Made by a program: the position numbers and the translations under genes
Notes under the pieces: model-generated
Databases searched by the model: none
Told to the model about the DNA's origin: nothing
Seen by the model: the letters and a program-made list of their open reading frames with translations, nothing else
NCBI GenBank assembly: GCA_964460095.1
Contig: CAYWPW010000001.1
Span: 1 to 26,455 of the forward strand
DNA: 26,455 nucleotides
Reading direction: 5' to 3'
Source of the DNA: an uncultured Candidatus Cloacimonadota bacterium
GTDB lineage: Bacteria > Cloacimonadota > Cloacimonadia > Cloacimonadales > TCS61
Part shown: in pieces, positions 1,017-26,213 of the stretch
Layout of the letters: each line of letters begins with the position of its first letter
How positions within the stretch are numbered: position 1 is the first letter of the stretch

Positions 1017-1038
1017 GTTTTTTAATAAGGAGGTTATT

Positions 1039-2481: not shown

Positions 2482-2527
2482 AGTTTTCTTTATCGAGAAT
2501 TTGAATAAGTTTTTAGGAGATTATTTC

Positions 2528-3112: not shown

Positions 3113-3479
3113 TTGGTCTTCATATCCTGGGTTACAGTTATCCGAAAGTCTTTATGAAGATCCCGGAAAACAAAACAATATAATCATAAGTATGTGCTCT
3201 GGTAGAGTTTCTGCAGAATTAATATTAGAAGCATTTAAAAATGATGCCTGGGGAGTAATGATAGCAAGTTGCCCAAAAGAGAAGTGTGAACATGATGCAA
3301 ATTACAAAACAAGAAGAAGGATTTTGTTACTTCAAAAAATGCTCGAGCAGTTAGGAATTGAACCTGCAAGAATAAAGCTTGAATGGATCGATAAAGGAGA
3401 AGCTGCTAAGCTGAAACTTGCGATCGATGATTTTTCAAATGAATTAAGAAAAATGGGACCTGTAAATATTATAAACTAG
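3081..3479 (+). CDS. mvhD: MvhD/FlpD [2Fe-2S] hydrogenase delta subunit
   Basis: FCCSWSSYPG, MCSGRV, SCPKEKCEH..N and LGIEPARIKLEWI match the MvhD family. The ORF overlaps the upstream gene by 32 nt and may be part of a fusion (see findings). Confidence 0.85.
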   Translation: MNPKSVIFCCSWSSYPGLQLSESLYEDPGKQNNIIISMCSGRVSAELILEAFKNDAWGVMIASCPKEKCEHDANYKTRRRILLLQKMLEQLGIEPARIKLEWIDKGEAAKLKLAIDDFSNELRKMGPVNIIN

Positions 3480-3492
3480 GAGTATATTTTTT

Positions 3493-4560: not shown

Positions 4561-4615
4561 AATGAGAATTAAAAAATTAAATTTTCTATAGATACTTTAA
4601 TAAATGGAGGCATAA

Positions 4616-5632
4616 GTGCCAAAACCTAAAGTAGCTTTTTATTGGTGTGCATCCTGTGGGGGTTGTGAAGAAGCCATTGTAGACCTGAATGAAGATATCC
4701 TGAAAGTAGTTGAATTGGTAGACATTGTGTTCTGGCCCTGTGCAATGGATTTCAAATATCAAGATGTTAGAAATATGAAAGACAATGAGATCACAGTTGC
4801 TTTTATAAATGGAGCTATCCGCACTGATGAGCAGGAAGAAATTGTACAACTTCTCAGGAAGAAAGCTCAACTTGTAATCGCTTTCGGATCTTGTTCTCAT
4901 CTGGGTGGAATCCCGGGATTAGCAAATTTCTGGGATAGAGAAACTATTTTTGAATCCTCTTATGGGAAGAATTGTCCTTCTGTTGATAACCCTAAAAGGA
5001 TTTTTCCACAAACAAAAAGTAAAGTTCCGGAAGGAGAACTGACTTTACCTGCTTTTCATAATACGGTAAAAAGCCTTGATCAGGTAATCGATGTGGATTA
5101 TTATATTCCCGGATGTTCTCCTGCACCATATTTAACAATGCAGGCGATAGAAGCTATTCTTGCTGGGGAATTACCAGAGAAAGGAACTGTTCTGGCTCCC
5201 TTAAAATCTTTGTGTGATGTTTGTGAACGTAATGATTCCAAACCGGAAAAAATTTCTCTGAATAAGATAAAAAGAATTTCCGAAGTAATAGCAGATCCTG
5301 AAAAGTGTTTTCTGGCTGAGGGGATTATCTGTTTGGGACCGGTTACCAGGGCAGGATGCGCTTCGGAAGGTAGTGGAAGATGTATCACAGCAAACATGCC
5401 ATGTAGAGGTTGTTATGGACCTCCACCAGAAGTAAAAGATGTTGGTGGAAAAATGATATCTTCTCTCGCTTCCATAGTAGGTTTGGAAGGTGAAGAAAAT
5501 ATGAGCGATGAAGATGTAGAAAAGCTTATTGATCAGATAGTTGATCCTGCCGGATATTTTTATCGCTTTTCTCTACCAGCTTCTTTATTAAGAAGAAAAA
5601 GGATGAATGATCCTGTAGCGGAGAATGAATAA
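4616..5632 (+). CDS. mvhG: Group 3c [NiFe]-hydrogenase small subunit MvhG
   Basis: GTG start after GGAGG. CASCGGC, GSCSHLGGIPG, PGCSP, CDVC, CLGPVTRAGC and PCRGCYG are present. Confidence 0.9.
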   Translation: MPKPKVAFYWCASCGGCEEAIVDLNEDILKVVELVDIVFWPCAMDFKYQDVRNMKDNEITVAFINGAIRTDEQEEIVQLLRKKAQLVIAFGSCSHLGGIPGLANFWDRETIFESSYGKNCPSVDNPKRIFPQTKSKVPEGELTLPAFHNTVKSLDQVIDVDYYIPGCSPAPYLTMQAIEAILAGELPEKGTVLAPLKSLCDVCERNDSKPEKISLNKIKRISEVIADPEKCFLAEGIICLGPVTRAGCASEGSGRCITANMPCRGCYGPPPEVKDVGGKMISSLASIVGLEGEENMSDEDVEKLIDQIVDPAGYFYRFSLPASLLRRKRMNDPVAENE

Positions 5633-5633
5633 A

Positions 5634-7097
5634 ATGGCTAAAAAAATAACAATAGATCCGATTACTAAATTAGAAGGTCACGGTAAAATAGAAATTTTCC
5701 TCGATGATGATGGAGATGTTAAGAATGCATATTTACAGGTTCCTGAATTGAGGGGATTCGAGCAATTCTGCGTGGGACGACCGGTAGAAGAACTGGCAAG
5801 AATAACTCCCCGCATTTGCGGTGTTTGCCCTACAACTCATCATCTGTGTTCAACTAAAACACTCGATGCTGTTTATAATGTTACACCAACAGATACCGCT
5901 GTAAAACTCAGACGACTCATCAACGATGCTTTTATTGCAGAAGATCATCTGCTTCATTTCTTCTTCCTGGGTGGTCCTGATTTTGTGGTCGGACCGGATG
6001 CTCCTCCCGGAGAAAGAAATATTCTGGGTGTTATCGGTAAGGTCGGTATTGAAATCGGTAAAAAAGTTATCGATATGAGAAGAAGGCTGCGAAGTATTAT
6101 CACCTATCTTGGTGGAAGAGTGATTCATCCTGTATGTGGTTTACCTGGCGGTATTTCAAAAGGATTACCGGAAGATCAGCGTTTAGCTTTTTTGAAAGTT
6201 GCTAAAGATGCCGTGGAATTTTCTAAGTTCTGTTTGCAGGTATTTGATGACATCGTTCTAAAAAATGATACTTACCTCGATTTAATTGTGGGTGATATTT
6301 TCAAACACCAAACTTATTACATGGGTCTGGTTGATGAAAATAACAAAGTTGATCTCTATGACGGGAAGATTCGAGTAGTTGATCCGAATGGAAAAGAATT
6401 TGTTAAATTTGAAGCAAAGGATTATCTGGATCATATTGTCGAGCATGTAGAACCCTGGAGTTATATTAAATTCCCATATTTAAAAAATATCGGTTGGAAG
6501 GGTTTTGTTGATGGAATCGACAGTGGTGTTTACCGTGTTGCTCCCCTGGCAAGACTCAATGCTGCTGATGGCATGAAAACCCCTCTGGCGCAGGCTGAAT
6601 ATGAAAAAATGTATGCTACCCTGGGAGGGAAACCTGCTCATAATACATTAGCTTTTCACTGGGCAAGATTGATAGAGGTTATGTATGTTTCTGAAGAGTT
6701 AGTTCAACTTCTTGAAGATAAATCAATCACAAATCCTGATATCAGGAATCTTCCTACAGAAACTCCAAGTGAAGGTGTTGGTGTTATCGAAGCTCCCCGG
6801 GGAACTTTGTTCCATCATTATAAAACAGATAAAAACGGTATGGTAACAAATGTAAATCTGATAGTGGCTACTGTTAATAATTCTGCTGCTATTTCCATGT
6901 CTATTGCCAAAGCTGCAAAAGGGCTGATCAGCAAAGGTAAAGTCGATGATGGACTTTTGAATATGGTGGAAATGGCTTTTCGATCTTATGATCCTTGTCT
7001 TGCTTGTGCAACGCATTCTTTGCCGGGGAAAATGCCTCTTATCGTAAATCTTCGCGATAACAACAAGGATATAGTTAAATCTATTAGAAGAGATTAG
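5634..7097 (+). CDS. mvhA: Group 3c [NiFe]-hydrogenase large subunit MvhA
   Basis: IDPITKLEGHGKI N-terminus, L1 motif RICGVC, EAPRG, and L2 motif FRSYDPCLACATH followed by a cleavable C-terminal extension. ATG 5634 is preferred over 5625. Confidence 0.93.
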   Translation: MAKKITIDPITKLEGHGKIEIFLDDDGDVKNAYLQVPELRGFEQFCVGRPVEELARITPRICGVCPTTHHLCSTKTLDAVYNVTPTDTAVKLRRLINDAFIAEDHLLHFFFLGGPDFVVGPDAPPGERNILGVIGKVGIEIGKKVIDMRRRLRSIITYLGGRVIHPVCGLPGGISKGLPEDQRLAFLKVAKDAVEFSKFCLQVFDDIVLKNDTYLDLIVGDIFKHQTYYMGLVDENNKVDLYDGKIRVVDPNGKEFVKFEAKDYLDHIVEHVEPWSYIKFPYLKNIGWKGFVDGIDSGVYRVAPLARLNAADGMKTPLAQAEYEKMYATLGGKPAHNTLAFHWARLIEVMYVSEELVQLLEDKSITNPDIRNLPTETPSEGVGVIEAPRGTLFHHYKTDKNGMVTNVNLIVATVNNSAAISMSIAKAAKGLISKGKVDDGLLNMVEMAFRSYDPCLACATHSLPGKMPLIVNLRDNNKDIVKSIRRD

Positions 7098-7105
7098 CTT
7101 TTTTA

Positions 7106-7561
7106 ATGAAAACACTTGTTTTAGGATTGGGAAATACGATTTTAACTGATGATGGAGTAGGAATAAGGGTAGCACAAAAAATAAAAGAAAGATGTAAAAA
7201 TGTCGATGTCTCCGAAGCCAGCGCTGCTGGCTTCAGAGTTATAGACGAGATAATTGGTTACGATAAACTTATTTTAATTGACTCAATAAAAACCGGAAAA
7301 TCTGAACCCGGAAAGCTTCATAAATTTACTTTTGAAGAATTCAAAAAAACAAGACATCATGCTCAACCACACGACATCAGCCTATTTGAAGCTTTTGAGA
7401 TCATTAAACAACACGGAGATAAATTACCTTCTGAAATTGAAATTTATGCCGTGGAAGTTAGTGATACATCTACTCTTTCTGAAACATGCACAATGGAAGT
7501 TGAAGCTTCTATTCCAAAAATATCTCAAAAAATCATTGATGAACAATCACTCTTTAAATAA
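7106..7561 (+). CDS. Hydrogenase maturation protease (HyaD/HycI family)
   Basis: LVLGLGNTILTDDGVG, LILIDS and H..H motifs. It lies directly after mvhA. Confidence 0.9.
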   Translation: MKTLVLGLGNTILTDDGVGIRVAQKIKERCKNVDVSEASAAGFRVIDEIIGYDKLILIDSIKTGKSEPGKLHKFTFEEFKKTRHHAQPHDISLFEAFEIIKQHGDKLPSEIEIYAVEVSDTSTLSETCTMEVEASIPKISQKIIDEQSLFK

Positions 7562-9752: not shown

Positions 9753-10577
9753 ATGAATGACATAGAAAAAACTAATAAAACTGCAGAAGAATATAAAATG
9801 CAGGGAGAGTTGTTGAAAGCTTCCCAAGAGTATAATAAAATATTGGATAAAGATCCGAATAATATTAATTCAAGGATAAGTCTCGCAGATATTTATTATA
9901 TTCTTGGTGATATTAATAAATCAATAGAGCAGTATGAAAAAGCTGTTGAACTAAAACCTCATTATGGCTTGGTTTTATACCGTTTGGGCATTTCATATTT
10001 TCGGGCTACAAAATTCTATAAAGCGATTTCTGTTCTGGACAGGGTAATCAAATTAGATCCAGATTTATATATGGCTTATTATTGGAAAGGTCTTTCTTAT
10101 TATCATATCGGAAGAGTTCGGAAAAGTATCGAATCATACAAAAAGCTCCGGGAAAAGGGGAAGGACAGCACTTTAGGATATTATCATCTGGCAATTTCCT
10201 ATAAAACTATCGGGAATTATAAAGAAGCAATAAAATGTCTCGAACAGATTTTAAAGGAAGAACAAAATATCGTTTCAGTCAATTATCATCTCGGTCTTTC
10301 ATATTTGGGACTTTCAAAAATTGAAAAAGCTCTCCTATGCTTCAAAAAAGTTCTGGAAATCGATTCCGAACATCAGGGAGCAAAAGATATCCTCGGTAAT
10401 CTCTCTACTGATCAGGAAATGCTTTATACGTTCGGTATTGAGGAATCAAAAAGAGACAGTAACATCGAGGAATTAATTACTAACTATCATGTTGGAGAAA
10501 CTTACAAAGGATTTTCTTCTATTGATAGAGCATTTAAATATTTTAGAAAAAAACTTAAGGAAAAACAAAAGGACTAG
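9753..10577 (+). CDS. Tetratricopeptide-repeat protein (paralogue of 25542-26213)
   Basis: Repeating ~34-aa TPR units (Y..LG..Y, A...Y.K). No catalytic domain is evident. Confidence 0.85.
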   Translation: MNDIEKTNKTAEEYKMQGELLKASQEYNKILDKDPNNINSRISLADIYYILGDINKSIEQYEKAVELKPHYGLVLYRLGISYFRATKFYKAISVLDRVIKLDPDLYMAYYWKGLSYYHIGRVRKSIESYKKLREKGKDSTLGYYHLAISYKTIGNYKEAIKCLEQILKEEQNIVSVNYHLGLSYLGLSKIEKALLCFKKVLEIDSEHQGAKDILGNLSTDQEMLYTFGIEESKRDSNIEELITNYHVGETYKGFSSIDRAFKYFRKKLKEKQKD

Positions 10578-11515: not shown

Positions 11516-12070
11516 ATGGCTAAAGAAATACATTTACAGACTCCACTAAAAGATGAAGATCTGGAAAAACTCAATATTGGTGACAAGGTTCTCATTACGG
11601 GAACCGTGTACACAGCACGCGATGCTGCTCATAAAAGACTTGTTGACTTAATAGAAGCAGGAAAAGAGCTTCCTTTTGATATTAAAGGACAGATAATCTA
11701 TTTTGTCGGTCCTGCTCCTGCTAGACCGGGAATGCCTATCGGTTCAGCAGGTCCCACAACTAGCTACAGAATGGATTCCTATTCCCCAATTCTTCTGGAT
11801 GAAGGCTTAAAAGGGATGATTGGAAAAGGACCCAGAAGTAAAGAAGTCATTAATTCAATGATAAAAAATAAAGGCGTGTATTTTGCGGCAATCGGTGGAG
11901 CTGCAGTTGTAATGGCTCAATCCATAAAAGCTGCAAAAGTGATAGCTTATGAAGATCTTGGAACGGAAGCGATAAGAGAATTGAAAGTGGAAAACCTACC
12001 ATGCATTGTTGCAAATGATGTTTATGGTAATGATTTATTTGATGAAGGAGTTAAAAAATACAGAAAATGA
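11516..12070 (+). CDS. fumB: Fe-S class I fumarate hydratase, beta subunit (FumB/TtdB family)
   Basis: TARDAAHKR, GPTTSYRMD, GKGPR and EDLGTEA motifs. It is adjacent to the alpha subunit. Confidence 0.88.
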   Translation: MAKEIHLQTPLKDEDLEKLNIGDKVLITGTVYTARDAAHKRLVDLIEAGKELPFDIKGQIIYFVGPAPARPGMPIGSAGPTTSYRMDSYSPILLDEGLKGMIGKGPRSKEVINSMIKNKGVYFAAIGGAAVVMAQSIKAAKVIAYEDLGTEAIRELKVENLPCIVANDVYGNDLFDEGVKKYRK

Positions 12071-12107
12071 AATTCTTGTTCCCAAGTTTGACTTGGGAAC
12101 AAGAATT
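12071..12107. repeat. REP-like palindrome, family member 2 (perfect 17-bp stem)
   Basis: AATTCTTGTTCCCAAGT-TTG-ACTTGGGAACAAGAATT starts immediately after the fumB stop codon. It shares the CTTGTTCCCA...TGGGAAC core with 22128-22154. Confidence 0.8.
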
Positions 12108-12125
12108 ATCAAACAAGGAGGTATT

Positions 12126-13049
12126 ATGGAAAAAGTTTCAATTATTGGTAGTGGGAATGTTGGAACCGCAGCAGCATTCTATATAGCGGAGAAGTGTACT
12201 GCGAATATTATGCTAATTGACATCTTAGAAGGAAAAGCTGAAGGTAGCGCTTTGGACCTTGCAGAAGCTTCTCCACTACGTGATTATGATATTAAAATCG
12301 AAGGATCTTCAAACATTGAAGATATCAAAGATTCCAAAGTAGTTGTAATAACTGCTGGAAAAGTGAGAAAACCTAATACATTACGACTTGAACTTCTAGA
12401 AGAAAACGTAAAAATTATCGACCCGATAATCAAAGACATCAAAAAATATGCGCCTGATTCAATCGTTATTATTCTTACAGAACCAATAACATCAATGACA
12501 TATTATGCTTGGAAAAAATTAGGTTTCGATCGACAAAAAGTTCTTGGTGTTGCTGGCAAATTAGACGTTGCCAGAGTTTGTGAATTCGTCTCTCAGGAAC
12601 TCAAAGTGACTCCTGTTGAAGTTAGCGCACTTGTACTTGGAGGTCATCACAAATTTATGGTAATTCCACCTGAGTTTATAAGAGTGTGCGGTATTCCAAT
12701 AAACGAACTGATTCCTAAAGACCGTGTTGATCAAATCATCACTAAAGTTAGAGAAGCCGGAACTGATATTCTTACATTACTCAAAAAACAAACCTCCATG
12801 TATTCTCCAGGTGCTGCTATAGCTGAAACCGTCGGTGCGATCATTAATGACACAAAAGCAATTCTTTGCGTTCCAACTTGCCTTGAAGGTGAATACGGAT
12901 TCAAGGACTTATGTTTGGGTGTACCCGTACAAATAGGGATAAATGGTATTGAAAAAATTATTGAATTAGAACTCTCCCTTGATATTAAGGAGAAACTTCA
13001 AATCTCTGCTGATGTGATAAAGAAAACCATTGAATCTTTGGGAATATAG
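12126..13049 (+). CDS. Divergent LDH-like malate dehydrogenase paralogue
   Basis: ATG 12126 follows AAGGAGG; the ORF-track start at 12006 lies inside fumB. IIGSGNVG, TAGKVRKP..LR, LDVAR and LGGH are present, but the conserved TNP motif reads TEP. Confidence 0.8.
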   Translation: MEKVSIIGSGNVGTAAAFYIAEKCTANIMLIDILEGKAEGSALDLAEASPLRDYDIKIEGSSNIEDIKDSKVVVITAGKVRKPNTLRLELLEENVKIIDPIIKDIKKYAPDSIVIILTEPITSMTYYAWKKLGFDRQKVLGVAGKLDVARVCEFVSQELKVTPVEVSALVLGGHHKFMVIPPEFIRVCGIPINELIPKDRVDQIITKVREAGTDILTLLKKQTSMYSPGAAIAETVGAIINDTKAILCVPTCLEGEYGFKDLCLGVPVQIGINGIEKIIELELSLDIKEKLQISADVIKKTIESLGI

Positions 13050-13057
13050 GAGGAACC

Positions 13058-13990
13058 ATGAAAGTTAGTATAATTGGAAGCGGAAATGTTGGTGTTGCCT
13101 GTGCACTTTATTTGGCAGAAAAGCGTGTTTCGAATATTGTTTTAATCGATGTTGTAGAAGGCTGGGCAGAAGGTAAAGCAATGGATATTGTACAAGCTTC
13201 TCCGATTCGACGATATGATGTTTTTATCAATGGCTATTCTGATATCAGTATGATAAAAGATTCTGAGGTGGTTGTAGTCACAGCAGGTAAGCCAAGATTA
13301 CCTGGCATGTCCAGAGAAGATTTACTGCGTGATAACGTAAAAATTATGAAAAATGTTTCAGAAAGCATCGCCAGATATGCCCCGAATTCAATCGTCATCA
13401 CTGTTACAAATCCTCTTGATATTCTGGCTTATGTAGCTTTGAAAGTTACAGGTTTTGCATTGAAGAAAGTTATTGGTATGGCCGGAATACTTGATTCTTC
13501 AAGATTTAGATATTTTATTGCCCATGAACTTGGAGTAAGTCCTAAAAATGTTACTGCTCTTGTATTAGGTGGTCATGGTGATTTGATGGTACCTTTACCG
13601 CGATATTCAACAGTTCATGGAATTCCGGTTTCAGAACTTTTACCAAAAGCAAAAATTGATAAACTAATAGAACGCACCCGCAAAGCCGGTGGTGAAATTG
13701 TGGCATATCTCAAAACTGGTAGTGCGTATTGGTCACCTGGTAGCTCGGCAGCAGAGATGGCTGAATGCATAGTTCGTAATAGAAATAGAATAGTACCTTG
13801 CTCAGCATATCTAAGAGGAGAATACGGAATTGACGGTTTGTTTGCTGGTGTTCCAATCAAAATCGGTAGAAATGGAGTTGAGGAAATAATCGAATTGTCA
13901 CTCACTACTGAAGAAACACAAGCCCTACATCTTTCAGCTGAAAAAGTAAGGGAAGTTATTGAAAAAATCGAAGCGGAAAAACTTATTTGA
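13058..13990 (+). CDS. mdh: Malate dehydrogenase (NAD, LDH-like tetrameric type)
   Basis: IIGSGNVG, TAGKPRLPGMSREDLL (both substrate Arg residues), VTNPLD, LDSSR, LGGHGD. Confidence 0.93.
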   Translation: MKVSIIGSGNVGVACALYLAEKRVSNIVLIDVVEGWAEGKAMDIVQASPIRRYDVFINGYSDISMIKDSEVVVVTAGKPRLPGMSREDLLRDNVKIMKNVSESIARYAPNSIVITVTNPLDILAYVALKVTGFALKKVIGMAGILDSSRFRYFIAHELGVSPKNVTALVLGGHGDLMVPLPRYSTVHGIPVSELLPKAKIDKLIERTRKAGGEIVAYLKTGSAYWSPGSSAAEMAECIVRNRNRIVPCSAYLRGEYGIDGLFAGVPIKIGRNGVEEIIELSLTTEETQALHLSAEKVREVIEKIEAEKLI

Positions 13991-15327
13991 TGAAATTACA
14001 AATTCCATTTTGGGGAGAGGAACTTACTGTTTCTCTCCCCAAACACAATATAGGGGAAATCATATTCCCTAATTCAGTTGAGATACGACCGGAAAAGGAG
14101 ATTCTTTTTGAGGCTTTCAATAATCCGGTTGATACAGGTAGTTTTGATGATTTTATTAAAGGTGATGAGCCTATTCTCATTATTATTAATGATGCTACAA
14201 GACCAACGCCAAATGCAAGAATCATAGATCTTTTCTGGAACAAAATAAAAGATAAGGATATAAAATTTCTAATTGCTACAGGAGGCCATAGAGCACCATC
14301 CAAAGATGAATATCTCGAACTTTTTGGGAATCATTATTCAGAATTAGAAAAAAATATATTTTCACACGATTCAAAAAATAAAGAAGAAAACATCTATATT
14401 GGTAAAACTGAAAATGGCACAGAAGTTTATTTCGATAAAATGGTTATGAACGCTAACAAAATAATTTACATAACTTCTGTTGAACCGCACTATTTTGCTG
14501 GTTTTACCGGTGGAGCAAAATCCTTTTTACCCGGAATTGCCGCTCATAAAACAATCGAGCAAAATCATGAGCTGGCATTAAAAGCTACTGCTAAAGCATT
14601 AGTTATTGAAGGGAATCCAGTTAGAAATGATATAAAAGAAGCTTATGATTTCATTGCAAAAGATAAGAAGATTTTTTCAATTCAAACCGTCTTAAACAAA
14701 GACCATAGAATTTATTTTTGTGTTTGCGGTGAAACACACAAGGCTTTCAAATTAGCATGCGAAAAAGCAAATGATGTTTTTTCAGTGGAAATCAGAGAAA
14801 GAGCAGATATCGTTGTATCAGTTGCACCTTATCCAATGGACATCGATTTTTATCAATCGCAGAAAGCAATTGATAATGGCAAATTTGCATTGAATCCGAA
14901 TGGGATTCTCATTTTAGTAGCAAGTTGCAGGAAAGGGCTTGGAGGGAAATCATTTTTTAAACTATTAAGTGAATCCAGAAATCCTGATGAAGTCTTTAAT
15001 AAAATTGCACAAGGTTTCAAACTGGGTTATCATAAAGCAGCTAAAATGGCGGAAATCATGAAGTGGGCTTCTATCTGGGCTTACACAAAGCTTGAACCTG
15101 AATTACTGAATCATATTTTTATTAAAGGATTTGGAGATTTACAGGAAGCAATAGATGCCAGCCTGAAGGAAAAGGGAAACGAAAAAATACTCTTTTTGAT
15201 GGATGGTAGTTTAACTGTTCCTCGAATCGCACACCGCATCCTTCACAAAAGAAAGTTCATCTACGCTCCAGTTACAGATAAAAACCCAAAAAATCATATC
15301 AAACTCGATGATCTGTTTATTGATTGA
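13990..15327 (+). CDS. larA: LarA-family nickel-pincer 2-hydroxyacid racemase/epimerase (substrate unknown)
   Basis: TGATG coupling to mdh. INDATRPTP, ATGGHR, EPHYFAGFTGGAKS, NH, YQSQKA and DGSLTVP match lactate racemase family residues. About 35 extra residues follow at the C-terminus. Confidence 0.85.
   Translation: MKLQIPFWGEELTVSLPKHNIGEIIFPNSVEIRPEKEILFEAFNNPVDTGSFDDFIKGDEPILIIINDATRPTPNARIIDLFWNKIKDKDIKFLIATGGHRAPSKDEYLELFGNHYSELEKNIFSHDSKNKEENIYIGKTENGTEVYFDKMVMNANKIIYITSVEPHYFAGFTGGAKSFLPGIAAHKTIEQNHELALKATAKALVIEGNPVRNDIKEAYDFIAKDKKIFSIQTVLNKDHRIYFCVCGETHKAFKLACEKANDVFSVEIRERADIVVSVAPYPMDIDFYQSQKAIDNGKFALNPNGILILVASCRKGLGGKSFFKLLSESRNPDEVFNKIAQGFKLGYHKAAKMAEIMKWASIWAYTKLEPELLNHIFIKGFGDLQEAIDASLKEKGNEKILFLMDGSLTVPRIAHRILHKRKFIYAPVTDKNPKNHIKLDDLFID
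14009..14043 (+). other. 15-bp hairpin inside the 5' coding region of larA
   Basis: TTTGGGGAGAGGAAC-TTACT-GTTTCTCTCCCCAAA gives 14 Watson-Crick pairs plus one G-U pair. Confidence 0.6.
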
Positions 15328-15407
15328 TATTTTATTCAACTTACTATATTTTAGCAAGTTGTGAATCTTATTAAACGTATAATTTGAGTACAAGAAAAAA
15401 AAATAAA

Positions 15408-16733
15408 ATGAAATATCATATAAAATGCTTACATTGTGGAAAAATATATTCCGAAAACCAATATGTTACAAAATGTGTTAATGAATGCGATTCAGTATTG
15501 AGAACGGAATATGAAAAAAAATATTTTGATGTAGTCGAAGAAAACCAAGGTATCTTGAAATACATTAATTGGCTGCCATTTAATAATGTCAGCAAGCAAT
15601 TATCAGAGAATTGTAGTTCTTTTTCAATTTATATGAGCAGAAAGTTAGCAGATTATTTTGGATTGGAAAACCTATTAATATGTCGTAATACTTATTATCC
15701 AGATTCAAATGAATCAATGAGAACCGGCACTTTCAAGGATATTGAAGCAGAAATGTCTTTCCAAAGAATTATTGAAACAGGGGAATATGGAAAACCATTT
15801 GTTCTTTCTTCCGACGGTAATGTAGCAACTTCATTTATCCATTATTCAAATATTTTCCAATATCCTGTAGTTCTATCGGTTACAGAAGATGCGAGAATGA
15901 ACAGAATATGGTCGTTCAGAAATTCTAATCCAAACGTGACGCTTATATCGATGCAGGGCAACTGTGATTATTATAACTCTATAGCTTTAGCAAATGAACT
16001 TGGAAAAAATAATCAATTTGTTTCTGAAGGTGGCGCTTTAAATGTAGCAAGAAGAGATGGTATCGGAACAATAATGTTAGAAGCAACAAAATTTTTAGGG
16101 CATATGCCCGACCACTATTTTCAGTCGCTTGGTTCTGGTCCTGGAGCAATTGCCGTATATGAAACTTCATTACGGCTAAAAGAAGATGGCAGGTATGGAA
16201 AAACGTTACCTAAGATACATAGCTCTCAAAATCATCCGTTTATTCCTATGTATGAAGCCTGGCAGAGACGATCAAGAGTAATAGACTCGAAATATCAAGA
16301 TGAAAATGCTGTTGAGTTGATTAAGCAGGTCTATGCTCACGTGCTTACTAATAGATATCCTGCATATTCAATAAAAGGCGGAGTATTTGATGCTCTGGAG
16401 AATACTTCCGGTGAGTTTTATTCCATAACAAATGAAGAAGCTGTAAAAGCACAGAAAATGTTTAAAGAACTTGAGGGATATGATATAGAGCCGCCAGTTG
16501 GCGTAACAGTTGCTTCATTAATAAAATCTATAGAAAATGGAACAGTTAATAATGATGATTATATCCTTTTAAATATTACTGGTGGTGGAAGAGAAAATAT
16601 GAAGAAAGAAAAATTTATATTAAATCCGACAATAACGGTAAACAAAAACTATAATATTAATGATTTAATGCAATTTTTTTTTAACAACCGACGAGGAATG
16701 TTTTCATCACAAATAAAAGATTCAGCTACATAA
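15408..16733 (+). CDS. Cysteate synthase-like PLP enzyme (threonine synthase fold, MA3297 family)
   Basis: N-terminal CxxC (CLHCGK), PLP-Lys motif TGTFKDIEA, family-typical EGGALNVARRDGIGT and PDHYFQSLGSG, and LLNITGGG. ATG 15408 is the likely start. Confidence 0.75.
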   Translation: MKYHIKCLHCGKIYSENQYVTKCVNECDSVLRTEYEKKYFDVVEENQGILKYINWLPFNNVSKQLSENCSSFSIYMSRKLADYFGLENLLICRNTYYPDSNESMRTGTFKDIEAEMSFQRIIETGEYGKPFVLSSDGNVATSFIHYSNIFQYPVVLSVTEDARMNRIWSFRNSNPNVTLISMQGNCDYYNSIALANELGKNNQFVSEGGALNVARRDGIGTIMLEATKFLGHMPDHYFQSLGSGPGAIAVYETSLRLKEDGRYGKTLPKIHSSQNHPFIPMYEAWQRRSRVIDSKYQDENAVELIKQVYAHVLTNRYPAYSIKGGVFDALENTSGEFYSITNEEAVKAQKMFKELEGYDIEPPVGVTVASLIKSIENGTVNNDDYILLNITGGGRENMKKEKFILNPTITVNKNYNINDLMQFFFNNRRGMFSSQIKDSAT

Positions 16734-18601: not shown

Positions 18602-18715
18602 AAGAGAATAAAAATAGTATTAGAATTCAAATGAAAAACTTTGACGGATTAGAATAGTTTTTATTTCTGTAAACAGGTTAAATTAGATTTTTTGAAAAAT
18701 AAATTGGAGGAAAAA

Positions 18716-20443
18716 ATGGCAAGCAAAGCAAGTATTGATTTTTACAAGAATTTGAAGGAAATGTCTTCGATTCGAGCTGTGGCGGAAACGATAATGCTAA
18801 ATCCAAAAGTTCGGAAAGTAAATGCACGTGAAGCTTATGAAATGGCAATGAAGCAACCGGGAGTAGCAGTTACGGATTTAGAAATTTATCCTCCTTTTGC
18901 TGAACATTTGGGACTGCCAAAAGGTGCAAAAGTGCTTAATGACTGTCATGGCAAAATTATTGGACGCACAGCAAAAGCAAGAGTGTTCTATAACAGAATA
19001 CCGGGAGCTGAAAAAAAGAAAGTCGAAGGTGATGCCAGGGAAGCAATGTTTCAACTTGAACATTACGATTTGATAAAATGCGAGGCTGTATTGGGTTTGG
19101 ATCCTGATCTTATGATAAAAGCAACTTATGTGACTACAACTACAGATGCCAGCAATGTTTTTAATTGGTTATGCAATTTCGCTCCGCTTGAGTTGATGAA
19201 AGAAGAATATGAAAAAAGCAAACCTCTTCCAATTCAGGATGTTATCATTGTTGCATTTAATGAATGGACCTGCGACGATCCGTATTATCACAATGTTGGT
19301 GCTCCTCAAATCGGTCTGGTCGATGAAACCCAGAACGTTATTTTCAATTTTGGAATGCGTTATTTTGGTGAGCGTAAAAAAGGTACTTTAACTCTTGCCT
19401 GGACATCTGGTATGAGGTTGGGAATGGCTGCCTGCCACGGTGGTATCAAAGAAATTGATTTCTCAGGTTGTGCAGATGAATATAAAAAATTAGGCAAGAA
19501 ATCGATTGCTTTCTATGGTCTTTCCGGTACAGGAAAATCCTCACACACAAACTCAATCGATAATGGCGGTACATTACCTGCAGGATTCGAAAAATATTGC
19601 CTTCACGATGATGCTTTCCAGATCGATACCGATGATAAAGTATGTCGTGTCTGGGAACCTGCTTTGTTCGATAAAACAGATAGCAGAGATCTTGATAATC
19701 CTGATTGGAAATACTTGATTGCTCTTATGAATCATGCGATGATAGAACGAAATGGAAAATTATTACCTCTTGGATTGGATGTTCGACAGGCAAATGGAAG
19801 AGCACTACTGGATCGAGACCTTTTGGGTAACTGGGTAAATAGATGCAGTTTCCCGGAAGCTTTAACCTGGCTTATGAAGGATACAGCACTTCCTCCGGTT
19901 CATAAATATAAAGATAAATACCTGGCAGTTGCCATGGGTGCAGCTCTTATCACAAAAAGAAGCAGAGCGGAAAATGTTACGGAAGAAGACCTCAAGAAAT
20001 TGGTTTTTGAACCTTTTGCAAATCCTTTCAGGGTTTATGAACTTTACAAAGATGTGGAATCATTCATCAAGGTTCTGGAAACCGGAGCGGATTGTTACAC
20101 GTTCAATTCTGCAGGATACTGGAAATCTTCAGATGATGATTTGGACGACGTCAAATTGCAAACATCTTTAACTTTGCAAACAGGAATCTTAATGGAACAG
20201 CTTGAATGGGAAGATTGGGACATGCTGCCCGGTGCGATGATTCCTACAAAAGAATCTGTTGAAAAAATTCTTCCCGGTTATTATGAGAGATATCATCCTG
20301 ATAAGCGTGAAAATATGGATGAATATGTTGTACTTCTGAAAGATCGTTTCGAGCAAAGACGAGAGTATTTGAAATCATCCGATGTGGCAACTAAACCGGA
20401 ACTACTTGAAAAGCTTGTAAACGCATTGCAGATCAAAGAATAA
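18716..20443 (+). CDS. pckA: Phosphoenolpyruvate carboxykinase (ATP), divergent type
   Basis: ATG 18716 follows GGAGG. RYFGERKKG, ACHGG, P-loop GLSGTGKS and the metal-binding HDD are present. Confidence 0.8.
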   Translation: MASKASIDFYKNLKEMSSIRAVAETIMLNPKVRKVNAREAYEMAMKQPGVAVTDLEIYPPFAEHLGLPKGAKVLNDCHGKIIGRTAKARVFYNRIPGAEKKKVEGDAREAMFQLEHYDLIKCEAVLGLDPDLMIKATYVTTTTDASNVFNWLCNFAPLELMKEEYEKSKPLPIQDVIIVAFNEWTCDDPYYHNVGAPQIGLVDETQNVIFNFGMRYFGERKKGTLTLAWTSGMRLGMAACHGGIKEIDFSGCADEYKKLGKKSIAFYGLSGTGKSSHTNSIDNGGTLPAGFEKYCLHDDAFQIDTDDKVCRVWEPALFDKTDSRDLDNPDWKYLIALMNHAMIERNGKLLPLGLDVRQANGRALLDRDLLGNWVNRCSFPEALTWLMKDTALPPVHKYKDKYLAVAMGAALITKRSRAENVTEEDLKKLVFEPFANPFRVYELYKDVESFIKVLETGADCYTFNSAGYWKSSDDDLDDVKLQTSLTLQTGILMEQLEWEDWDMLPGAMIPTKESVEKILPGYYERYHPDKRENMDEYVVLLKDRFEQRREYLKSSDVATKPELLEKLVNALQIKE

Positions 20444-20448
20444 ATTAT

Positions 20449-20476
20449 GGGCAGACGTAAGTCTGCCTTTTTTTTT
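20449..20476 (+). terminator. Intrinsic (Rho-independent) terminator
   Basis: GGCAGAC-GTAA-GTCTGCC stem with a GNRA loop, followed by T9, a few nt after the pckA stop. Confidence 0.9.
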
Positions 20477-20707: not shown

Positions 20708-22003
20708 ATGCCACGATTGAGAGAGAGAATCAGAACAAGAATTCCAAAAATTCGAGCTCTGATTAAAGATGAGATTTTGAGTAAACATGCGGGTGAAACC
20801 GTTGGAGATGTTACTGTCAAACAGGTTTATGGTGGTATGAGGGGAGTAATCGGTTTAGTTTGTAATTCTTCTTATGTAGATCCATATAAGGGTTTACACA
20901 TTAGAGGAATTCCTCTTGATGAATTAACCGAAATAATTCCGGAAGAGATGTTTTACCTGCTTTGTACCGGAGAAATTCCTGCAAAAGAAGATTTGGAAAA
21001 ATTGCAGGAAGAAATGCGTCTGCGTTCCGAAGTTCCCGAACATGTGTGGGATGTTCTGCGAGCTTTACCCAAAGATACACATCCGATGACAATGTTCAGC
21101 ATTGCAATTATGGCCATGGAAGGAAGTTCCATTTTCAAAGAAAAATATGCTGCTGGAATGAGAAAAGCGGATTACTGGGAAGCCACTCTGGATGATTCTT
21201 TAGAAATCCTGGCAAAGCTGCCTACAATCGCTGCCGGTATTTACAGGATAAGATACTCTATGGGAGATCTGATACCTTATGATAAATCTCTGGACTGGGG
21301 TGGTAATTATGCAAAAATGCTTGGTGTTCCCGATCCTAATGGAGAATTCGCAAAATTGGTAAGACTGTACCTGGTTCTTCATTGTGACCATGAAGGCGGA
21401 AATGTAAGCGCATTTACAGCCCGAGTTGTAAATTCCGCACTTTCAAATCTTTATTATGCTGTTTCTGCCGGTTTGAACGGACTTGCAGGACCTTTGCATG
21501 GCTTGGCAAATCAAGAATGTTTGAAATTTGTTTTATCGATTCAGGAAAAATTTGATAAAGCTCCTTCCAAAAAAGAGCTGGTAGATTTCGTATTATCAAC
21601 TTTGAAAGTTGGTAAAGTTGTTCCCGGATATGGTCATGCAGTTTTGAGGGCAACTGACCCGAGGTTTACAGCATTTTATAAGTTTGGTGAAAAGCATTGT
21701 GCCAAAGAAGAAACTTTCCTGATTGTGAAGAGACTCTTTGAAGTAGTTCCGGATATTTTGAAGGAATACGGTGGAGGAAAAATAGCTGATCCATATCCGA
21801 ATGTTGATGCTATTTCGGGCTCACTTTTGTTCAAATATGGATTAACCATGTTCGATTATTACACTGTTATGTTCGGTGTTTCCAGGGTTTTGGGATTCTG
21901 TGCCCAGGCAATAATGGCTCGTGGTCTTCAGGCTCCTATCATCAGACCAAAAAGTGTAACAAATGAGTGGATATTCGATAAATTAGGAATTAAGAAAAAA
22001 TAA
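20708..22003 (+). CDS. gltA: Citrate synthase, eukaryote/Geobacter-like Si type
   Basis: YGGMRG, DHEGGNVSA, NGLAGPLHGLANQE, VVPGYGHAVLRATDPR, PNVDA and FGVSR match the mitochondrial-type signature. Confidence 0.93.
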   Translation: MPRLRERIRTRIPKIRALIKDEILSKHAGETVGDVTVKQVYGGMRGVIGLVCNSSYVDPYKGLHIRGIPLDELTEIIPEEMFYLLCTGEIPAKEDLEKLQEEMRLRSEVPEHVWDVLRALPKDTHPMTMFSIAIMAMEGSSIFKEKYAAGMRKADYWEATLDDSLEILAKLPTIAAGIYRIRYSMGDLIPYDKSLDWGGNYAKMLGVPDPNGEFAKLVRLYLVLHCDHEGGNVSAFTARVVNSALSNLYYAVSAGLNGLAGPLHGLANQECLKFVLSIQEKFDKAPSKKELVDFVLSTLKVGKVVPGYGHAVLRATDPRFTAFYKFGEKHCAKEETFLIVKRLFEVVPDILKEYGGGKIADPYPNVDAISGSLLFKYGLTMFDYYTVMFGVSRVLGFCAQAIMARGLQAPIIRPKSVTNEWIFDKLGIKKK

Positions 22004-22179: not shown

Positions 22180-24114
22180 ATGGGTTTCAATATTATCCAG
22201 AAAATTATAAAATCTCATCTTATCGAAGGAGAGATGGAAGCTGGTAAAACTGTCGGCATCAAAATCGACCAGACCTTAACTCAGGATGCTACGGGAACAA
22301 TGGCTTACCTTGAATTCGAAGCAATGGAAATTTCTGAACCAAAAACCGAAATTTCCGTGAGTTATGTAGACCATAATACCAGCCAGATGGGATTTGAAAA
22401 TGCTGATGACCACAAATATCTGCAAACAATAGCAAAAAAATTCGGATTATATTACTCCAGAGCAGGAAATGGGATTTGTCATCAGGTTCACCTGGAAAGA
22501 TTTGGGATTCCGGGAAATACGCTTTTAGGTTCAGATAGCCATACTCCAACCGGAGGCGGAATGGGAATGATGGCTATCGGTTCCGGTGGTCTGGATGTTG
22601 CCAGGGCTATTTCTGGTTTTCCTTTTTACATTACTTTTCCCAGAGTTCTGAAAATAAATTTGACCGGTAAATTAACTGGCTGGGTTTCTGCGAAAGATAT
22701 AATTTTGTATGTTTTGGAACTTCTTACTACAAAAGGAAATGTGGGTTGGATGATCGAATTCGGTGGTGTAGGAGTAAAAACCCTGAGTTTACCGGAACGG
22801 GCAACAATCACAAATATGGGTGCTGAATTGGGAGTGACCACCTCGATTTTTCCAAGCGATGAAATTACTTTATCTTTTCTTAAAGCCCAAGATAGAGAGG
22901 ATGGTTGGAAGGTACTGAAGGCAGATAACGAGGCAAAATACGACAGAATCATTGATATCGATCTTTCTACTCTCGAACCCAGAGTTGCCACACCGCACAG
23001 CCCGGGAAATATAAAACTGGTTAGTGAATTAACCGGAATGAAGGTTGATCAGGTTTGTATTGGAAGCTGTACAAATTCATCATTTAAAGATTTAATGATA
23101 GTAGCTGAAATGCTAAAAGGGAAAAAGTTACCTGCAGGTATGAGTCTTGTAATTGCTCCCGGCTCAAAACAGGTTTTGGAAATGATAACTAAAAATGGAG
23201 CTTTATCAGATTTAATCTCGTTTGGTGCGAGGATAATGGAATCTGCTTGTGGATTTTGCATCGGCAATGGTCAAGCACCTGCAACAGATGCTGTATCGGT
23301 TCGAACTAATAATCGTAATTTCAAAGGACGTTCCGGAACACAGTCCGCAGGCATTTATCTGGTTAGCCCGCAAACCGCAGCAGCTTGTGTAATAACCGGT
23401 GTTATGACCGATCCCAGAGATCTTGGGATGGAACCTCCGGAAATTACATTACCAGAAAAGTTCAAAATCGATGATAGTATGATAATTCCTCCAGCAAAGC
23501 AGAAAGAGGTAATTAAGATTTATCGCGGACCAAATATCGGAAATCCACCCACAAACAAACCTCTGGTTGATGAATTTTTTGGAGAAATAACTTTAAAGGT
23601 TGGAGATAAAATTACTACAGACCACATAATGCCTGCTGGGATCAGGTTGAAATATCGCTCAAATATTCCCAGATATTCCGAATTTGTTTTTGAACCTGTT
23701 GACTCCACATTTCCAGCAAGATGCCTTTCCAACAAAGAGAAAGAAAAAGCAAATATCATTGTTGCGGGATTAAGTTATGGTCAGGGTTCATCCCGGGAAC
23801 ACGCTGCGATTTGTCCTTCATTTTTGGGTGTGAAAGCAGTTATTGCAAAATCCATTGAAAGAATTCACTGGGCAAATCTTATAAACTTTGGCATTATTCC
23901 CATGATTTTTACAGATGAATCAGATTTTGATAAAATCGAACAAAATGATGAATTAGAAATGACTGACTTAATTCAAACTATCAGAAACAAGAGCAGTTAC
24001 ATCATCAAAAACAAATCTAGAAACATAGAATTTGAAGTGAAATTGGAACTGAGCTTCAGAGAACGAGAAATATTAATCGCAGGTGGAGTTTTAAACATAA
24101 TAAAAATCAGTTGA
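22180..24114 (+). CDS. acn: Aconitate hydratase (compact ~640-aa type)
   Basis: QDATG, GICHQ, DSHT, cluster Cys in IGSCTN and ACGFCIG, NRNFKGR, TTDHI and GQGSSRE. It sits between gltA and icd. Confidence 0.88.
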   Translation: MGFNIIQKIIKSHLIEGEMEAGKTVGIKIDQTLTQDATGTMAYLEFEAMEISEPKTEISVSYVDHNTSQMGFENADDHKYLQTIAKKFGLYYSRAGNGICHQVHLERFGIPGNTLLGSDSHTPTGGGMGMMAIGSGGLDVARAISGFPFYITFPRVLKINLTGKLTGWVSAKDIILYVLELLTTKGNVGWMIEFGGVGVKTLSLPERATITNMGAELGVTTSIFPSDEITLSFLKAQDREDGWKVLKADNEAKYDRIIDIDLSTLEPRVATPHSPGNIKLVSELTGMKVDQVCIGSCTNSSFKDLMIVAEMLKGKKLPAGMSLVIAPGSKQVLEMITKNGALSDLISFGARIMESACGFCIGNGQAPATDAVSVRTNNRNFKGRSGTQSAGIYLVSPQTAAACVITGVMTDPRDLGMEPPEITLPEKFKIDDSMIIPPAKQKEVIKIYRGPNIGNPPTNKPLVDEFFGEITLKVGDKITTDHIMPAGIRLKYRSNIPRYSEFVFEPVDSTFPARCLSNKEKEKANIIVAGLSYGQGSSREHAAICPSFLGVKAVIAKSIERIHWANLINFGIIPMIFTDESDFDKIEQNDELEMTDLIQTIRNKSSYIIKNKSRNIEFEVKLELSFREREILIAGGVLNIIKIS

Positions 24115-24180
24115 GAATCCACAAAATCGAGGAATTTCGTAAGTGATGAGTAATAATAATAAAATATTTGGAGGAGAAAA

Positions 24181-25527
24181 TTGATGTATCAAAAAATTGA
24201 AGTACCATCAAATGGAAAAAAAATAACCTTTAAAGATGGAAAATTAAATGTTCCGGATAATCCCATAATCCCGTTTATTGAAGGTGATGGAATGGGTCCT
24301 GATATCTGGAGAGCGACCAAGAGAGTGCTTGATGCAGCAGTGGAAAAAGCCTTTGCAGGAAAGAAAAAAATTATCTGGATGGAAATTCATGCAGGATTAT
24401 CTGCTCTCAAAAAATATGGGAATGATGATATTTTACCTGAAGATACGCTCAATGCGATCAAGGATTTTAAAGTTGCTATCAAAGGACCTCTTACCACTCC
24501 GGTTGGCGGATTTGATTATGTGTGCCTGGTTTGTTCCAAAGAGCAAAATGGAGAGGATGGCAAAAGACCTGAGAAATGCGTTAAATGCGGCTCGGAATTT
24601 GTTACCAAAAGATTTCGTTCTCTCAATGTGAGTTTAAGACAGATTCTTGATTTATATGCCTGTGTGCGTCCCGTAAGATGGTACAAAGGTGTTCCTTGTC
24701 CTGTGAAAAGACCGGATAAATTGGATGTGATCGTTTTCAGGGAAAATACGGAAGATGTTTATGCAGGAATCGAATTTCAGGAAGGAACAGAAGAAGCTAA
24801 AAAAATTATCAATTTCTTAATTGATGAAATGAAAAAAAATGTTCGCATGGACAGCGGAATTGGCATCAAACCTATTTCTATCACAGGCACAAAAAGGTTG
24901 GTCAGAAAAGCGATTAATCACGCCATAGAGCAGAACCTGCCAAGTGTTACTCTGGTTCATAAAGGCAATATCATGAAGTTCACGGAAGGTGCATTCAGAG
25001 ATTGGGGCTACGAACTGGCAAAAGAGGAATACAGGGATAAAATCGTAACAGAGCAGGAACTATGGGATGAATTTGACGGCAAAATGCCGGAAGGAAAAAT
25101 CCTCATAAAAGATAGAATTGCCGACCAGACATTCCAGCAGGTTTTGCTTCGTCCTGATGAATATAGTGTGTTTGCCACACCGAATCTGAATGGCGATTAC
25201 CTTTCCGATGCCTGTGCTGCCCAGGTGGGTGGACTCGGTCTTGCACCGGGTGCTAACATTGGCGATGAAATCGCCCTCTTTGAAGCGACCCACGGAACTG
25301 CTCCCAAATATACAGGAATGGATAAAGTTAATCCCAGCTCCCTGATTCTTTCCGGTGTAATGATGCTCAAATATATGGGTTGGATAAAGGCTGGTGAAAT
25401 GATCGAAAATGCTTTGGAGAAAACCATTTCTCAGAAAACAGTTACTTACGACCTGGAACGACAGATGGAAGGTGCTACAAAACTGAAAACTTCTGAATTT
25501 GGAGAAAAAATAATCGAAAATATGTAA
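24181..25527 (+). CDS. icd: Isocitrate dehydrogenase (NADP, homodimeric type) with a CxxC...CxxC insertion
   Basis: [45 protein letters not shown], and NADP determinants HGTAPKY and TYDLER. Start is TTG 24181 or ATG 24184. Confidence 0.95.
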
Positions 25528-25541
25528 AAGAGGGTAAAGCC

Positions 25542-26213
25542 ATGAAAACGGTGGAAGAATATTTTGTTCAAGCAGAAAGCTTTAAAATGGCAGGAAAATT
25601 AAACAATGCTGCCAAAGAATATGAGCAAATTCTGAAAATCGAACCGCAAAATATCCCTGCTCTGATGAATCTTGGAAACTTATTTTTCATGCTGGGTTTT
25701 CTGAAAAAATCTGTAGAATCATACGAAAAAGTCTTAGAATTAAAACCAAATTACAGTTATGCTCTTTACAGACTTGGGATTTCATATTACAGGTATGCCC
25801 AATTCAGAAAAGCAATTGATACTTTCAAACAAGTTTTAACCCAGGATTCAGAACTTTACATGGCTTATAATTGGCTCGGATTATGTTATTATCATCTTGG
25901 CAGAGAAGATAAAAGCATCGAAGCATATTCAAAACTGTTGGAAAAAACGCCCGAACCTTTTATCGTAAATTACCACAGAGCTATTGCTTACAAATCCACC
26001 GGTGATTATGATAAAGCAATTACAGGTTTTTCAAATTTAATTAAAATTCATCCGGACCATGTTTCAGCTCATTATCACCTGGGGCTGGCTTATCTACACA
26101 ACCATGAAATTTATAAAGCGATTCAGATATTTAGAAAAGTTTTGAAACTCAATCCGAAACATAAAGGAGCTGCAGAAAAAATCGAATATCTTACTGACGT
26201 TCCATCAATATAA
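25542..26213 (+). CDS. Tetratricopeptide-repeat protein (paralogue of 9753-10577)
   Basis: About six TPR units. It shares LYRLGISY and LYMAY.W.GL.YYH.GR with the first TPR protein. Confidence 0.85.
   Translation: MKTVEEYFVQAESFKMAGKLNNAAKEYEQILKIEPQNIPALMNLGNLFFMLGFLKKSVESYEKVLELKPNYSYALYRLGISYYRYAQFRKAIDTFKQVLTQDSELYMAYNWLGLCYYHLGREDKSIEAYSKLLEKTPEPFIVNYHRAIAYKSTGDYDKAITGFSNLIKIHPDHVSAHYHLGLAYLHNHEIYKAIQIFRKVLKLNPKHKGAAEKIEYLTDVPSI

Follow-up and report, generated by a model that had tools for sequence, protein, structure and literature searches.

A predicted Cys4 zinc-ribbon-like module in the phosphorylation loop of isocitrate dehydrogenases from Cloacimonadota and other, largely uncultured lineages

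Introduction

What is a four-cysteine module doing inside the active-site loop of an isocitrate dehydrogenase (IDH)? The question is raised by a 26,455-nucleotide stretch of DNA (the window) from an uncultured Candidatus Cloacimonadota bacterium (assembly GCA_964460095.1, contig CAYWPW010000001.1), which carries a gene, icd, for an NADP-dependent enzyme of this kind. Few enzymes have been studied as thoroughly as IDH, whose 'phosphorylation loop' serves as the textbook case of control by phosphorylation at an active site. A first-pass annotation, made from the letters of the window alone, had reported that the conserved loop TTPVGG-G-(I/F)RSLNV is interrupted in frame by 34 residues at 24511-24612, beside the equivalent of Escherichia coli Ser113, and both the translation and alignment with structures in the Protein Data Bank (PDB) agree with this. 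It also knew of no characterised IDH with such an insert; in keeping with that statement, full-text searches found no paper on a zinc-ribbon or Cys4 IDH, and no PDB entry covers the insert. The databases name the insert-bearing proteins plain NADP-IDH, and there is no curated family model specific to the insert, the NCBIfam and Pfam IDH profiles matching as two stretches, with most of the insert left out of the alignment. The insert-bearing IDH is an undescribed variant of a well-known enzyme, widespread yet confined to largely uncultured lineages.

Position of the insert and nature of the host enzyme

When the window IDH was compared with all PDB chains (phmmer), each close IDH aligned as two stretches, query residues 1-110 and 145-448. 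Residues 2-109 and 111-416 of E. coli IDH border the gap, and the insert (residues 111-144; 24511..24612 on the forward strand, as are the other parts of icd and its neighbours given below), which is unaligned to any solved IDH, therefore takes the place of the single Gly110, with Ser147 as the equivalent of Ser113. On one side lies TTPVGG (residues 105-110; 24493..24510), the N-terminal half of the phosphorylation loop (T105...S113 in E. coli) by alignment to the E. coli enzyme; its T105 and T106 are the counterparts of E. coli T104 and T105, and all its residues except G110 are invariant among 98 homologues; on the other side, in the same frame, lies FRSLNV. Four of the seven cysteines of the window IDH fall within the insert. 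The first pair forms the knuckle C115-L-V-C118 (24523..24534) and is followed by E121-Q122 in the second predicted strand (24541..24546); the second pair forms the knuckle C133-V-K-C136 and leads into G137-S138 (24577..24588). The insert leaves into helix d through T142-K-R144-F145-R146-S147 (24604..24621, placed by alignment to E. coli IDH), and R144 stands where 56 of 56 aligned insert-less IDHs have Gly110.

The distance between TTPxG and RSxN is thus drawn out to 36 residues. A search with the loop as query recovered 104 IDH cluster representatives; this distance is exactly three residues in 99 of them and the other five carry the Cys4 insert, so that the site is, by this count, normally intolerant of length change. 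The G+C content of the insert (41%) matches that of the whole of icd (40.6%), and a recent foreign insertion is therefore discounted. An intein or mobile insertion was ruled out, the segment being too small and its composition not anomalous, as was an assembly artefact, the insert being present on hundreds of independent contigs.

The gene itself (24181..25527) was recognized as icd of the prokaryotic type, subfamily I, from its open reading frame, from TIGR00183 (674.5 bits against a cut-off of 567.3), PRK07006 (634 bits against 490) and Pfam Iso_dh (E 2e-86), and from its closest PDB match, the Archaeoglobus fulgidus enzyme 2iv0 (E 1.8e-165 by the same search). Its product has 448 amino acids if TTG at 24181 is the start and 447 if translation begins at ATG 24184; the latter is the likelier start because a ribosome-binding site, GGAGGAG, lies at 24170-24176, 7 nt ahead of it. 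Residue numbers throughout are those of the 448-residue version. Outside the insert the protein is 61-63% identical to E. coli Icd and A. fulgidus IDH. Pairwise alignment showed that the catalytic set S147, N149, R153, R163, R187, Y194, K261, D315, D339 and D343 is kept (in order, E. coli S113, N115, R119, R129, R153, Y160, K230, D283, D307 and D311), together with the determinants of NADP specificity K376, Y377, V383, Y423 and R427 (E. coli K344, Y345, V351, Y391 and R395), and nearly all of these residues are invariant among the 98 homologues. An AlphaFold2 model of the full protein, built on the same 98 homologues, had a mean predicted local distance difference test score (pLDDT) of 87.8 and was superposed by Foldseek on the A. 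fulgidus and E. coli enzymes (2iv0 and 1p8f), with TM-scores of 0.85 when normalized to the query and 0.92 when normalized to the target, a gap that in such a model is as expected from 34 extra residues. As judged from these residues and profiles the host enzyme is a catalytically ordinary, homodimer-type NADP-IDH, and the long loop leaves the catalytic definition of subfamily I unaffected. It has the fold and the catalytic and NADP residues of the subfamily I enzymes (E. coli Icd, 1ai2/3icd; A. fulgidus, 2iv0), but differs from them in having 34 residues for one glycine, R144 for Gly110, and leucine in place of E. coli Glu72 and Thr75.

Conservation and spread of the insert

In all, 244 relatives were inspected, comprising the 120 best matches of the window protein, the 120 best matches of a divergent member, P0126, and four further fragments. 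All 244 have the insert with its four cysteines invariant, and no Cys-less or degraded version was encountered among these sequences, which span about 50-60% core identity. The first-pass annotation had let its metal-binding proposal stand or fall by conservation of the cysteines in homologues, and on this point it holds. The 120 closest relatives of the window IDH (73-98% identity) have a long form of 34-35 residues and come from metagenome-assembled genomes (MAGs) named as Cloacimonetes, Marinimicrobia, KSB1, 'Bacteroidetes' and 'Armatimonadetes'. A second, divergent group came to light when 50%-identity representatives were searched exhaustively for the loop. In this short form the insert is 4-5 residues shorter, with the consensus EETHVCLHCAHQQYHAGxCDKCGKDDGVTERF, and was present in 120 of the 120 best relatives of P0126; the names here include Gemmatimonadetes, Acidobacteriota/Holophagae/Thermoanaerobaculales, Eisenbacteria, Krumholzibacteriia and Myxococcota. 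In that search, made with a 71-residue query, the insert clade was collapsed to five representatives, and the remaining matches were C2H2 zinc-finger arrays that resembled the KC..CGK portion in a low-complexity-like manner and were set aside as irrelevant. A contig search with the loop alignment yielded one locus, from a Cloacimonadota MAG, being dominated by the generic motif KGPLTTPVG, and a homologue search with a 46-residue short-form segment gave no candidate.

The pattern is C115-x2-C118-x14-C133-x2-C136-G in the long form, with a spacer of x9 in the short form. In a sample of 32 sequences covering both forms V114, C115, C118, Q122, C133, C136 and T142 were invariant, and in larger sets L116, G137 (98%) and R144 were nearly so; part of the short-form sequences have Cys, Ala or Val instead of T142. 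The cysteine variant places a fifth Cys (GVCERF) directly before the active-site F-R-S and is found in 37 of 118 short-form inserts, for example P0298, P0301 and P0310. The mean frequency of the majority residue in the long form is 0.80 within the insert and 0.83 in the rest of the protein, the variation being concentrated at 123-128, the predicted tip of the hairpin, basic in long-form sequences and acidic in short-form ones. The alignments indicate that the insert is real, old and under selection: in at least two deep clades it is as strongly conserved as the core of the enzyme. Two short-form proteins, P0287 and P0378, have Gln (RFQSIN) at the position of E. coli R112 (R146 in the window) and are otherwise normal insert-bearing IDHs. 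Among the representatives, P0129, a 345-residue IDH-like protein, has KGPLTTPIGGG(F/I)RSLNVALRQ...FRENTEDIYAG twice in tandem, explained either by an artefact of assembly or by an internal duplication of part of the sequence.

A small number of positions outside the insert separate its bearers from other IDHs (74 insert-bearing against 58 insert-less sequences). They include residues 73 and 76, in the segment L73-S-A-L76 at the start of helix 72-79 (24397..24408), whose two Leu substitutions co-occur with the insert. Insert-less enzymes have A-G-E-K here (G71-E72-K73 in E. coli), with Glu in 51 of 53 representatives, whereas insert bearers of both forms have A-G-L, L73 being present in 327 of 329 and L76 in 325 of 329; the E. 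coli counterparts are Glu72 and Thr75 respectively. K243, L354 and T378 are likewise common to the insert bearers. The sharing of these derived characters (L73, L76, K243, L354 and T378), all outside the insert, argues for one origin of the long and short forms. In a core-only neighbour-joining analysis the two forms grouped in 46% of replicates, so that monophyly is not settled by the core alignment. The insert together with the AGE-to-AGL change provides a simple sequence marker for this lineage of IDHs.

One way of reading this pattern is that the ribbon was inserted once in a tolerant surface loop and has since been kept as a passenger, with no added function, simply because misfolding so near the active site is harmful. 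The adjacent termini of a zinc ribbon would ease such an insertion (strands 113-115 and 141-143 are predicted to pair), the catalytic residues are all unchanged, and metal-binding and non-binding lineage variants of one protein are common, as in ribosomal proteins and adenylate kinase, the LID motif of the latter being cited in PMC4141199. However, not one of the 244 sequences has lost its cysteines or decayed, the compensatory changes at L73 and L76 have become fixed, and the loop is otherwise strictly length-invariant. We consider a functionless passenger quite improbable.

Predicted fold of the insert

In the AlphaFold2 model of the whole enzyme the insert blocks had pLDDT values of 87-92 and formed strands at 113-115, 121-122 and 141-143. 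Strands 113-115 and 141-143 sit side by side at the two ends of the insert, which fits the requirement of insertion into a three-residue loop. A 50-residue segment modelled alone gave the same strands at a pLDDT of 70. Foldseek with the isolated module returned nothing significant (best E 0.047), but its top matches were all Cys4 zinc ribbons: Rpb12 (E 0.047, probability 0.97), L40e, the zinc site of the MCM N-terminal domain, PF0610 and Sir2Af2 (E 0.17-0.5). Pfam gave the same picture below threshold. Across 32 homologous segments the matches were nearly all to zinc-ribbon families, the commonest being Zn_ribbon_8 (19/32), Zn_ribbon_SprT (16/32) and Zn_ribbon_PF0610 (15/32), with the lowest E-value per sequence between 3.5e-4 and 1.3e-3, under the gathering scores. 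Because of the CxxC pattern, the predicted fold, top structural matches that are all ribbons and Pfam matches that nearly all are, the insert is here called a zinc-ribbon-like Cys4 module, a member of no curated family. Like the Cys4 ribbons of Rpb12/RpoP, L40e, MCM and PF0610 it has two CxxC motifs with a short spacer between them, in its case predicted to form knuckles on beta-hairpins within a three-stranded sheet, but it lies inside a metabolic enzyme whereas theirs belong to nucleic-acid machinery, and none of the matches is significant. Nucleic-acid binding by the insert was considered and rejected, the basic tip of the long form being acidic in the short form.

The first-pass annotation had described the insert as rubredoxin- or zinc-ribbon-like, with a likeness to the knuckle of rubrerythrins. 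The Cys4 knuckle pattern and the ribbon part of that description stand on the pattern and the predicted fold; the link to rubrerythrin does not, as the sub-threshold matches are nearly all to zinc-ribbon families. The short-spaced Cys-x2-Cys...Cys-x2-Cys-Gly arrangement resembles that of the C-terminal rubredoxin-like domain of rubrerythrin, and this likeness, along with an anaerobe-type host and the hydrogenase and Hdr-like genes of the window, could be taken to suggest a rubredoxin-like Fe(Cys)4 electron-transfer centre that couples IDH to a redox partner or favours reductive carboxylation. Yet no rubredoxin or rubrerythrin family appeared at E<=1 among the matches listed for the insert, nor among the best 25 of 45 families for the 32 segments, and the sole match with rubredoxin in its name, 'PF0610 rubredoxin-like zinc beta-ribbon', was below threshold. 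The chemistry of IDH, hydride transfer to NADP, does not depend on a one-electron centre, and the residues that determine NADP specificity are all preserved. The citrate (Si)-synthase and aconitase genes beside icd belong to the oxidative branch, and the clade includes Gemmatimonadota and Acidobacteriota and is not tied to organisms with a reductive tricarboxylic acid (TCA) cycle, which also speaks against the suggestion made earlier that the insert might bias the enzyme towards carboxylation. An iron centre is accordingly a very improbable explanation.

A proposed structural flap at the active-site cleft

How might such a module act on the enzyme? In the Sulfolobus tokodaii apoenzyme the loop is partly disordered, and interactions between NADP and isocitrate pass through it, Thr104 touching the nicotinamide ribose (PMC6313988). 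We propose, at about even prospects of being right, that the insert is a structural metal module which stiffens and extends this mobile, Gly-rich loop into a flap at the entrance of the cleft, seated on helix 72-79. The four thiolates would bind one structural metal ion, most likely Zn(II), and the ribbon would pack against the hydrophobic face formed by L73 and L76 on the large domain, for which these two residues are a plausible seat and the helix a candidate docking face. A flexible loop would in this way be turned into a rigid flap where the active-site cleft opens. This loop, which in other IDHs touches the substrate as well as the nicotinamide ribose and shifts when the domains close, would then be altered in its stability and in its gating of substrate and cofactor, the chemistry being left untouched. 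The insert occurs in lineages that take their names from anaerobes and also in lineages known in culture mostly from aerobes, which fits a constitutive structural role.

Metal modules of this sort are known at other active sites. In many bacterial adenylate kinases the LID, a mobile element that closes over the nucleotide site, has a structural metal module that is present or absent according to lineage, and the Cys4 ribbon of Sir2 deacetylases is inserted beside the NAD(P) cleft, where it is structural rather than catalytic. The proposed flap resembles both by analogy. The adenylate kinase LID, whose Cys4 motif is cited in PMC4141199, is a similarly small Cys-x2-Cys...Cys-x2-Cys module on a mobile active-site element, the IDH side of the comparison being predicted only; the enzyme and the fold are different, and the LID exists with or without metal whereas the IDH module is wholly added to a three-residue loop. 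Sir2Af2 (1s7g/1ma3) is likewise a dinucleotide-binding enzyme with an inserted Cys4 ribbon, but it matches only weakly in structure, and its host fold and chemistry bear no relation to those of IDH.

Several observations weigh against this proposal. Neither Pfam nor Foldseek (best E as given above) provided a curated zinc-ribbon family or structure with a significant match. A structural role leaves unexplained why a loop that is length-invariant in 99 of 104 representatives took up a module at all, and does not account for the invariance of Q122 and R144, while the fifth cysteine at position 142 hints at thiol chemistry.

The last two of these points count in favour of another possibility, namely that the module is a redox- or metal-responsive switch in which oxidation of the Zn-thiolate site, or loss of zinc, unfolds the ribbon, which lies two residues from the Ser113 equivalent, and thereby opens or blocks the active site, so regulating the output of NADPH and 2-oxoglutarate without a kinase. 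Cys4 zinc sites are known as redox switches in Hsp33 and RsrA, the module lies in the loop that is regulated by phosphorylation in E. coli, the invariance of Q122 and R144 exceeds the needs of folding, and about a third of the short-form sequences (37/118) have the extra cysteine. Against it, Cys4 ribbons have in most cases a purely structural role, the loci compared show no conserved thioredoxin-type partner beside icd, and the insert follows no single oxygen regime: Gemmatimonadota and Acidobacteriota carry it, as do lineages whose names refer to strict anaerobes (Cloacimonadota, Thermoanaerobaculales). The same distribution is at odds with the oxygen sensor suggested in the first-pass annotation. 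A redox switch therefore seems unlikely to us.

Shielding of the serine from the kinase AceK had also been suggested. E. coli AceK requires a recognition segment in IDH, residues 239-275, which differs in other lineages, and a helical hairpin in the Bacillus subtilis enzyme keeps AceK from acting (PMC3521221). In the window IDH this region aligns without gaps to A. fulgidus, with which it shares the short type of segment, and shows gaps and low identity relative to E. coli, so that the shield finds no backing here. Ser147 is present at the position of Ser113, but a serine at this site is also a universal substrate ligand and so is not diagnostic of regulation by AceK. The B. subtilis hairpin and the E. 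coli segment are, like the insert, clade-specific variations in length around the cleft of subfamily I IDHs; they belong to the small domain (E. coli residues 239-275), however, whereas the window insert lies in the phosphorylation loop itself and is a predicted metal module. A bolder conjecture, and one we regard as doubtful, is that the Cys4 ribbon is a kinase-free switch in the loop that AceK controls elsewhere, with reversible metal loss or oxidation, or binding of a partner such as a tetratricopeptide repeat (TPR) protein, moving the flap and turning IDH on or off. If this were true, several large and mostly uncultured phyla would have arrived convergently at a means of controlling the isocitrate branch point, possibly a new regulatory principle for IDH. 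If instead the module is purely structural, it makes a tidy but modest addition to IDH diversity. A clade-wide predicted metal mini-domain in an otherwise length-invariant loop, found in genomes named as Cloacimonadota, Marinimicrobia, KSB1, Gemmatimonadota, Acidobacteriota and Myxococcota, offers a natural experiment on the loop dynamics that govern catalysis.

Genomic context and possible partners

The window is an island of central-carbon genes on one strand, with a G+C content of 37%, from an anaerobe-type organism. In order it encodes Hdr/Mvh-like and NiFe hydrogenase proteins, SucCD, a TPR protein, a class I fumarase, two malate dehydrogenase (MDH)-family paralogues, LarA-like and cysteate-synthase-like proteins, malic enzyme, a weak phosphoenolpyruvate (PEP) carboxykinase-like protein, citrate (Si)-synthase, aconitase, IDH and a second TPR protein. 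The genes for citrate (Si)-synthase (20708-22003) and aconitase (22180-24114), the pair for which NCBIfam NF007128 and NF005558 were given, lie upstream of icd, and a 223-residue TPR protein (25542..26213; TPR_2, E 2.6e-39) is encoded 14 nt downstream of it. A terminator-like hairpin is present at 20449-20468, ahead of citrate synthase. No such hairpin was found in the gaps within the series that runs from citrate synthase through aconitase and icd to the TPR gene, and these four genes probably form one transcription unit. This gene context points to the oxidative branch to 2-oxoglutarate rather than to reductive carboxylation.

It is conceivable that the ribbon serves for interaction, docking the TPR protein, a metabolon of aconitase and citrate synthase or a regulator, or mediating higher-order oligomerization of IDH dimers. 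We compared the 26 kb window with loci of about 12 kb each. The TPR gene directly follows icd in four of ten distinct contexts (the window, L004, L005 and L010), the orthologues being 51% (L004), 54% (L010) and, for a cut copy, 98% (L005) identical to the window protein; in the L004 and L010 comparison the TPR proteins are thus 51-54% identical at an icd identity of about 80%. Aconitase and citrate synthase genes adjoin icd or lie near it in most long-form loci, and the hairpin tip at 123-131 is exposed, charged and variable. A second TPR paralogue, 46% identical to the first, is encoded in the same TCA island (9753-10577, after sucD), and both have orthologues (52% and 51%) in the island of a Marinimicrobia-named MAG (L004, 9556-10368 and 7359-8030). 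The two TPR paralogues, which have no enzymatic domain, could be scaffolds or regulators of TCA enzymes. However, icd lacks this downstream neighbour in L001, L002/3, L006, L007, L008 and L009, all of which have the insert; the IDH of L001 is 85% identical to the window IDH, yet no TPR gene follows it. As the TPR gene is missing in six of ten contexts while the insert is universal, the TPR protein is not the general reason for the insert, and the suggestion of the first-pass annotation that the module could dock it is weakened accordingly. The acidic tip of the short form against the basic tip of the long form also leaves no single conserved surface evident. An interaction module is in our judgement somewhat unlikely, and we regard the TPR gene as a subclade-specific conserved neighbour of icd, with a subclade-specific interaction with IDH being possible.

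A different neighbour was noted at L002/L003 (1-3997) and L009 (1-4009), where icd, with or without aconitase, is preceded by a gene for a protein of about 1200 residues combining HATPase_c_2 (RsbW-like Ser kinase), SpoIIE (PP2C phosphatase) and TPR domains. A STAS-domain protein accompanies it, 49% identical between the loci, and the insert-bearing IDHs of these two lineages are 74% identical. That a partner-switching, Ser-phosphorylation module should lie beside an enzyme famed for Ser phosphorylation may be coincidence.

Other features of the window concern genes upstream of citrate synthase. The region 87-7561 encodes an FAD-binding protein cut at the window start, a GlcD/D-lactate-dehydrogenase-like FAD oxidase, two Fe-S proteins, MvhD/FlpD, an HdrB-like CCG protein, the small and large subunits of a NiFe hydrogenase and a HycI protease; from its gene content it looks like an Mvh/Hdr-type electron-bifurcating module tied to 2-hydroxyacid oxidation, directly upstream of the TCA genes. 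At 12006-16733 tandem paralogues of the MDH/lactate dehydrogenase family are followed by a LarA-like gene, whose closest family is the nickel-pincer malate racemase (under the family cut-off), and by a pyridoxal phosphate enzyme that exceeds the cut-off for cysteate synthase (TIGR03844); the order MDH-MDH-LarA is repeated in L004. Finally, a 583-residue protein encoded at 18692-20443, with the strong terminator-like hairpin at 20449-20468 after its gene, has a weak match to PEPCK_ATP (Pfam E 2e-8; NCBIfam 78 bits against a cut-off of 369), is kept at the same place in L005 and may be a divergent PEP carboxykinase-like enzyme.

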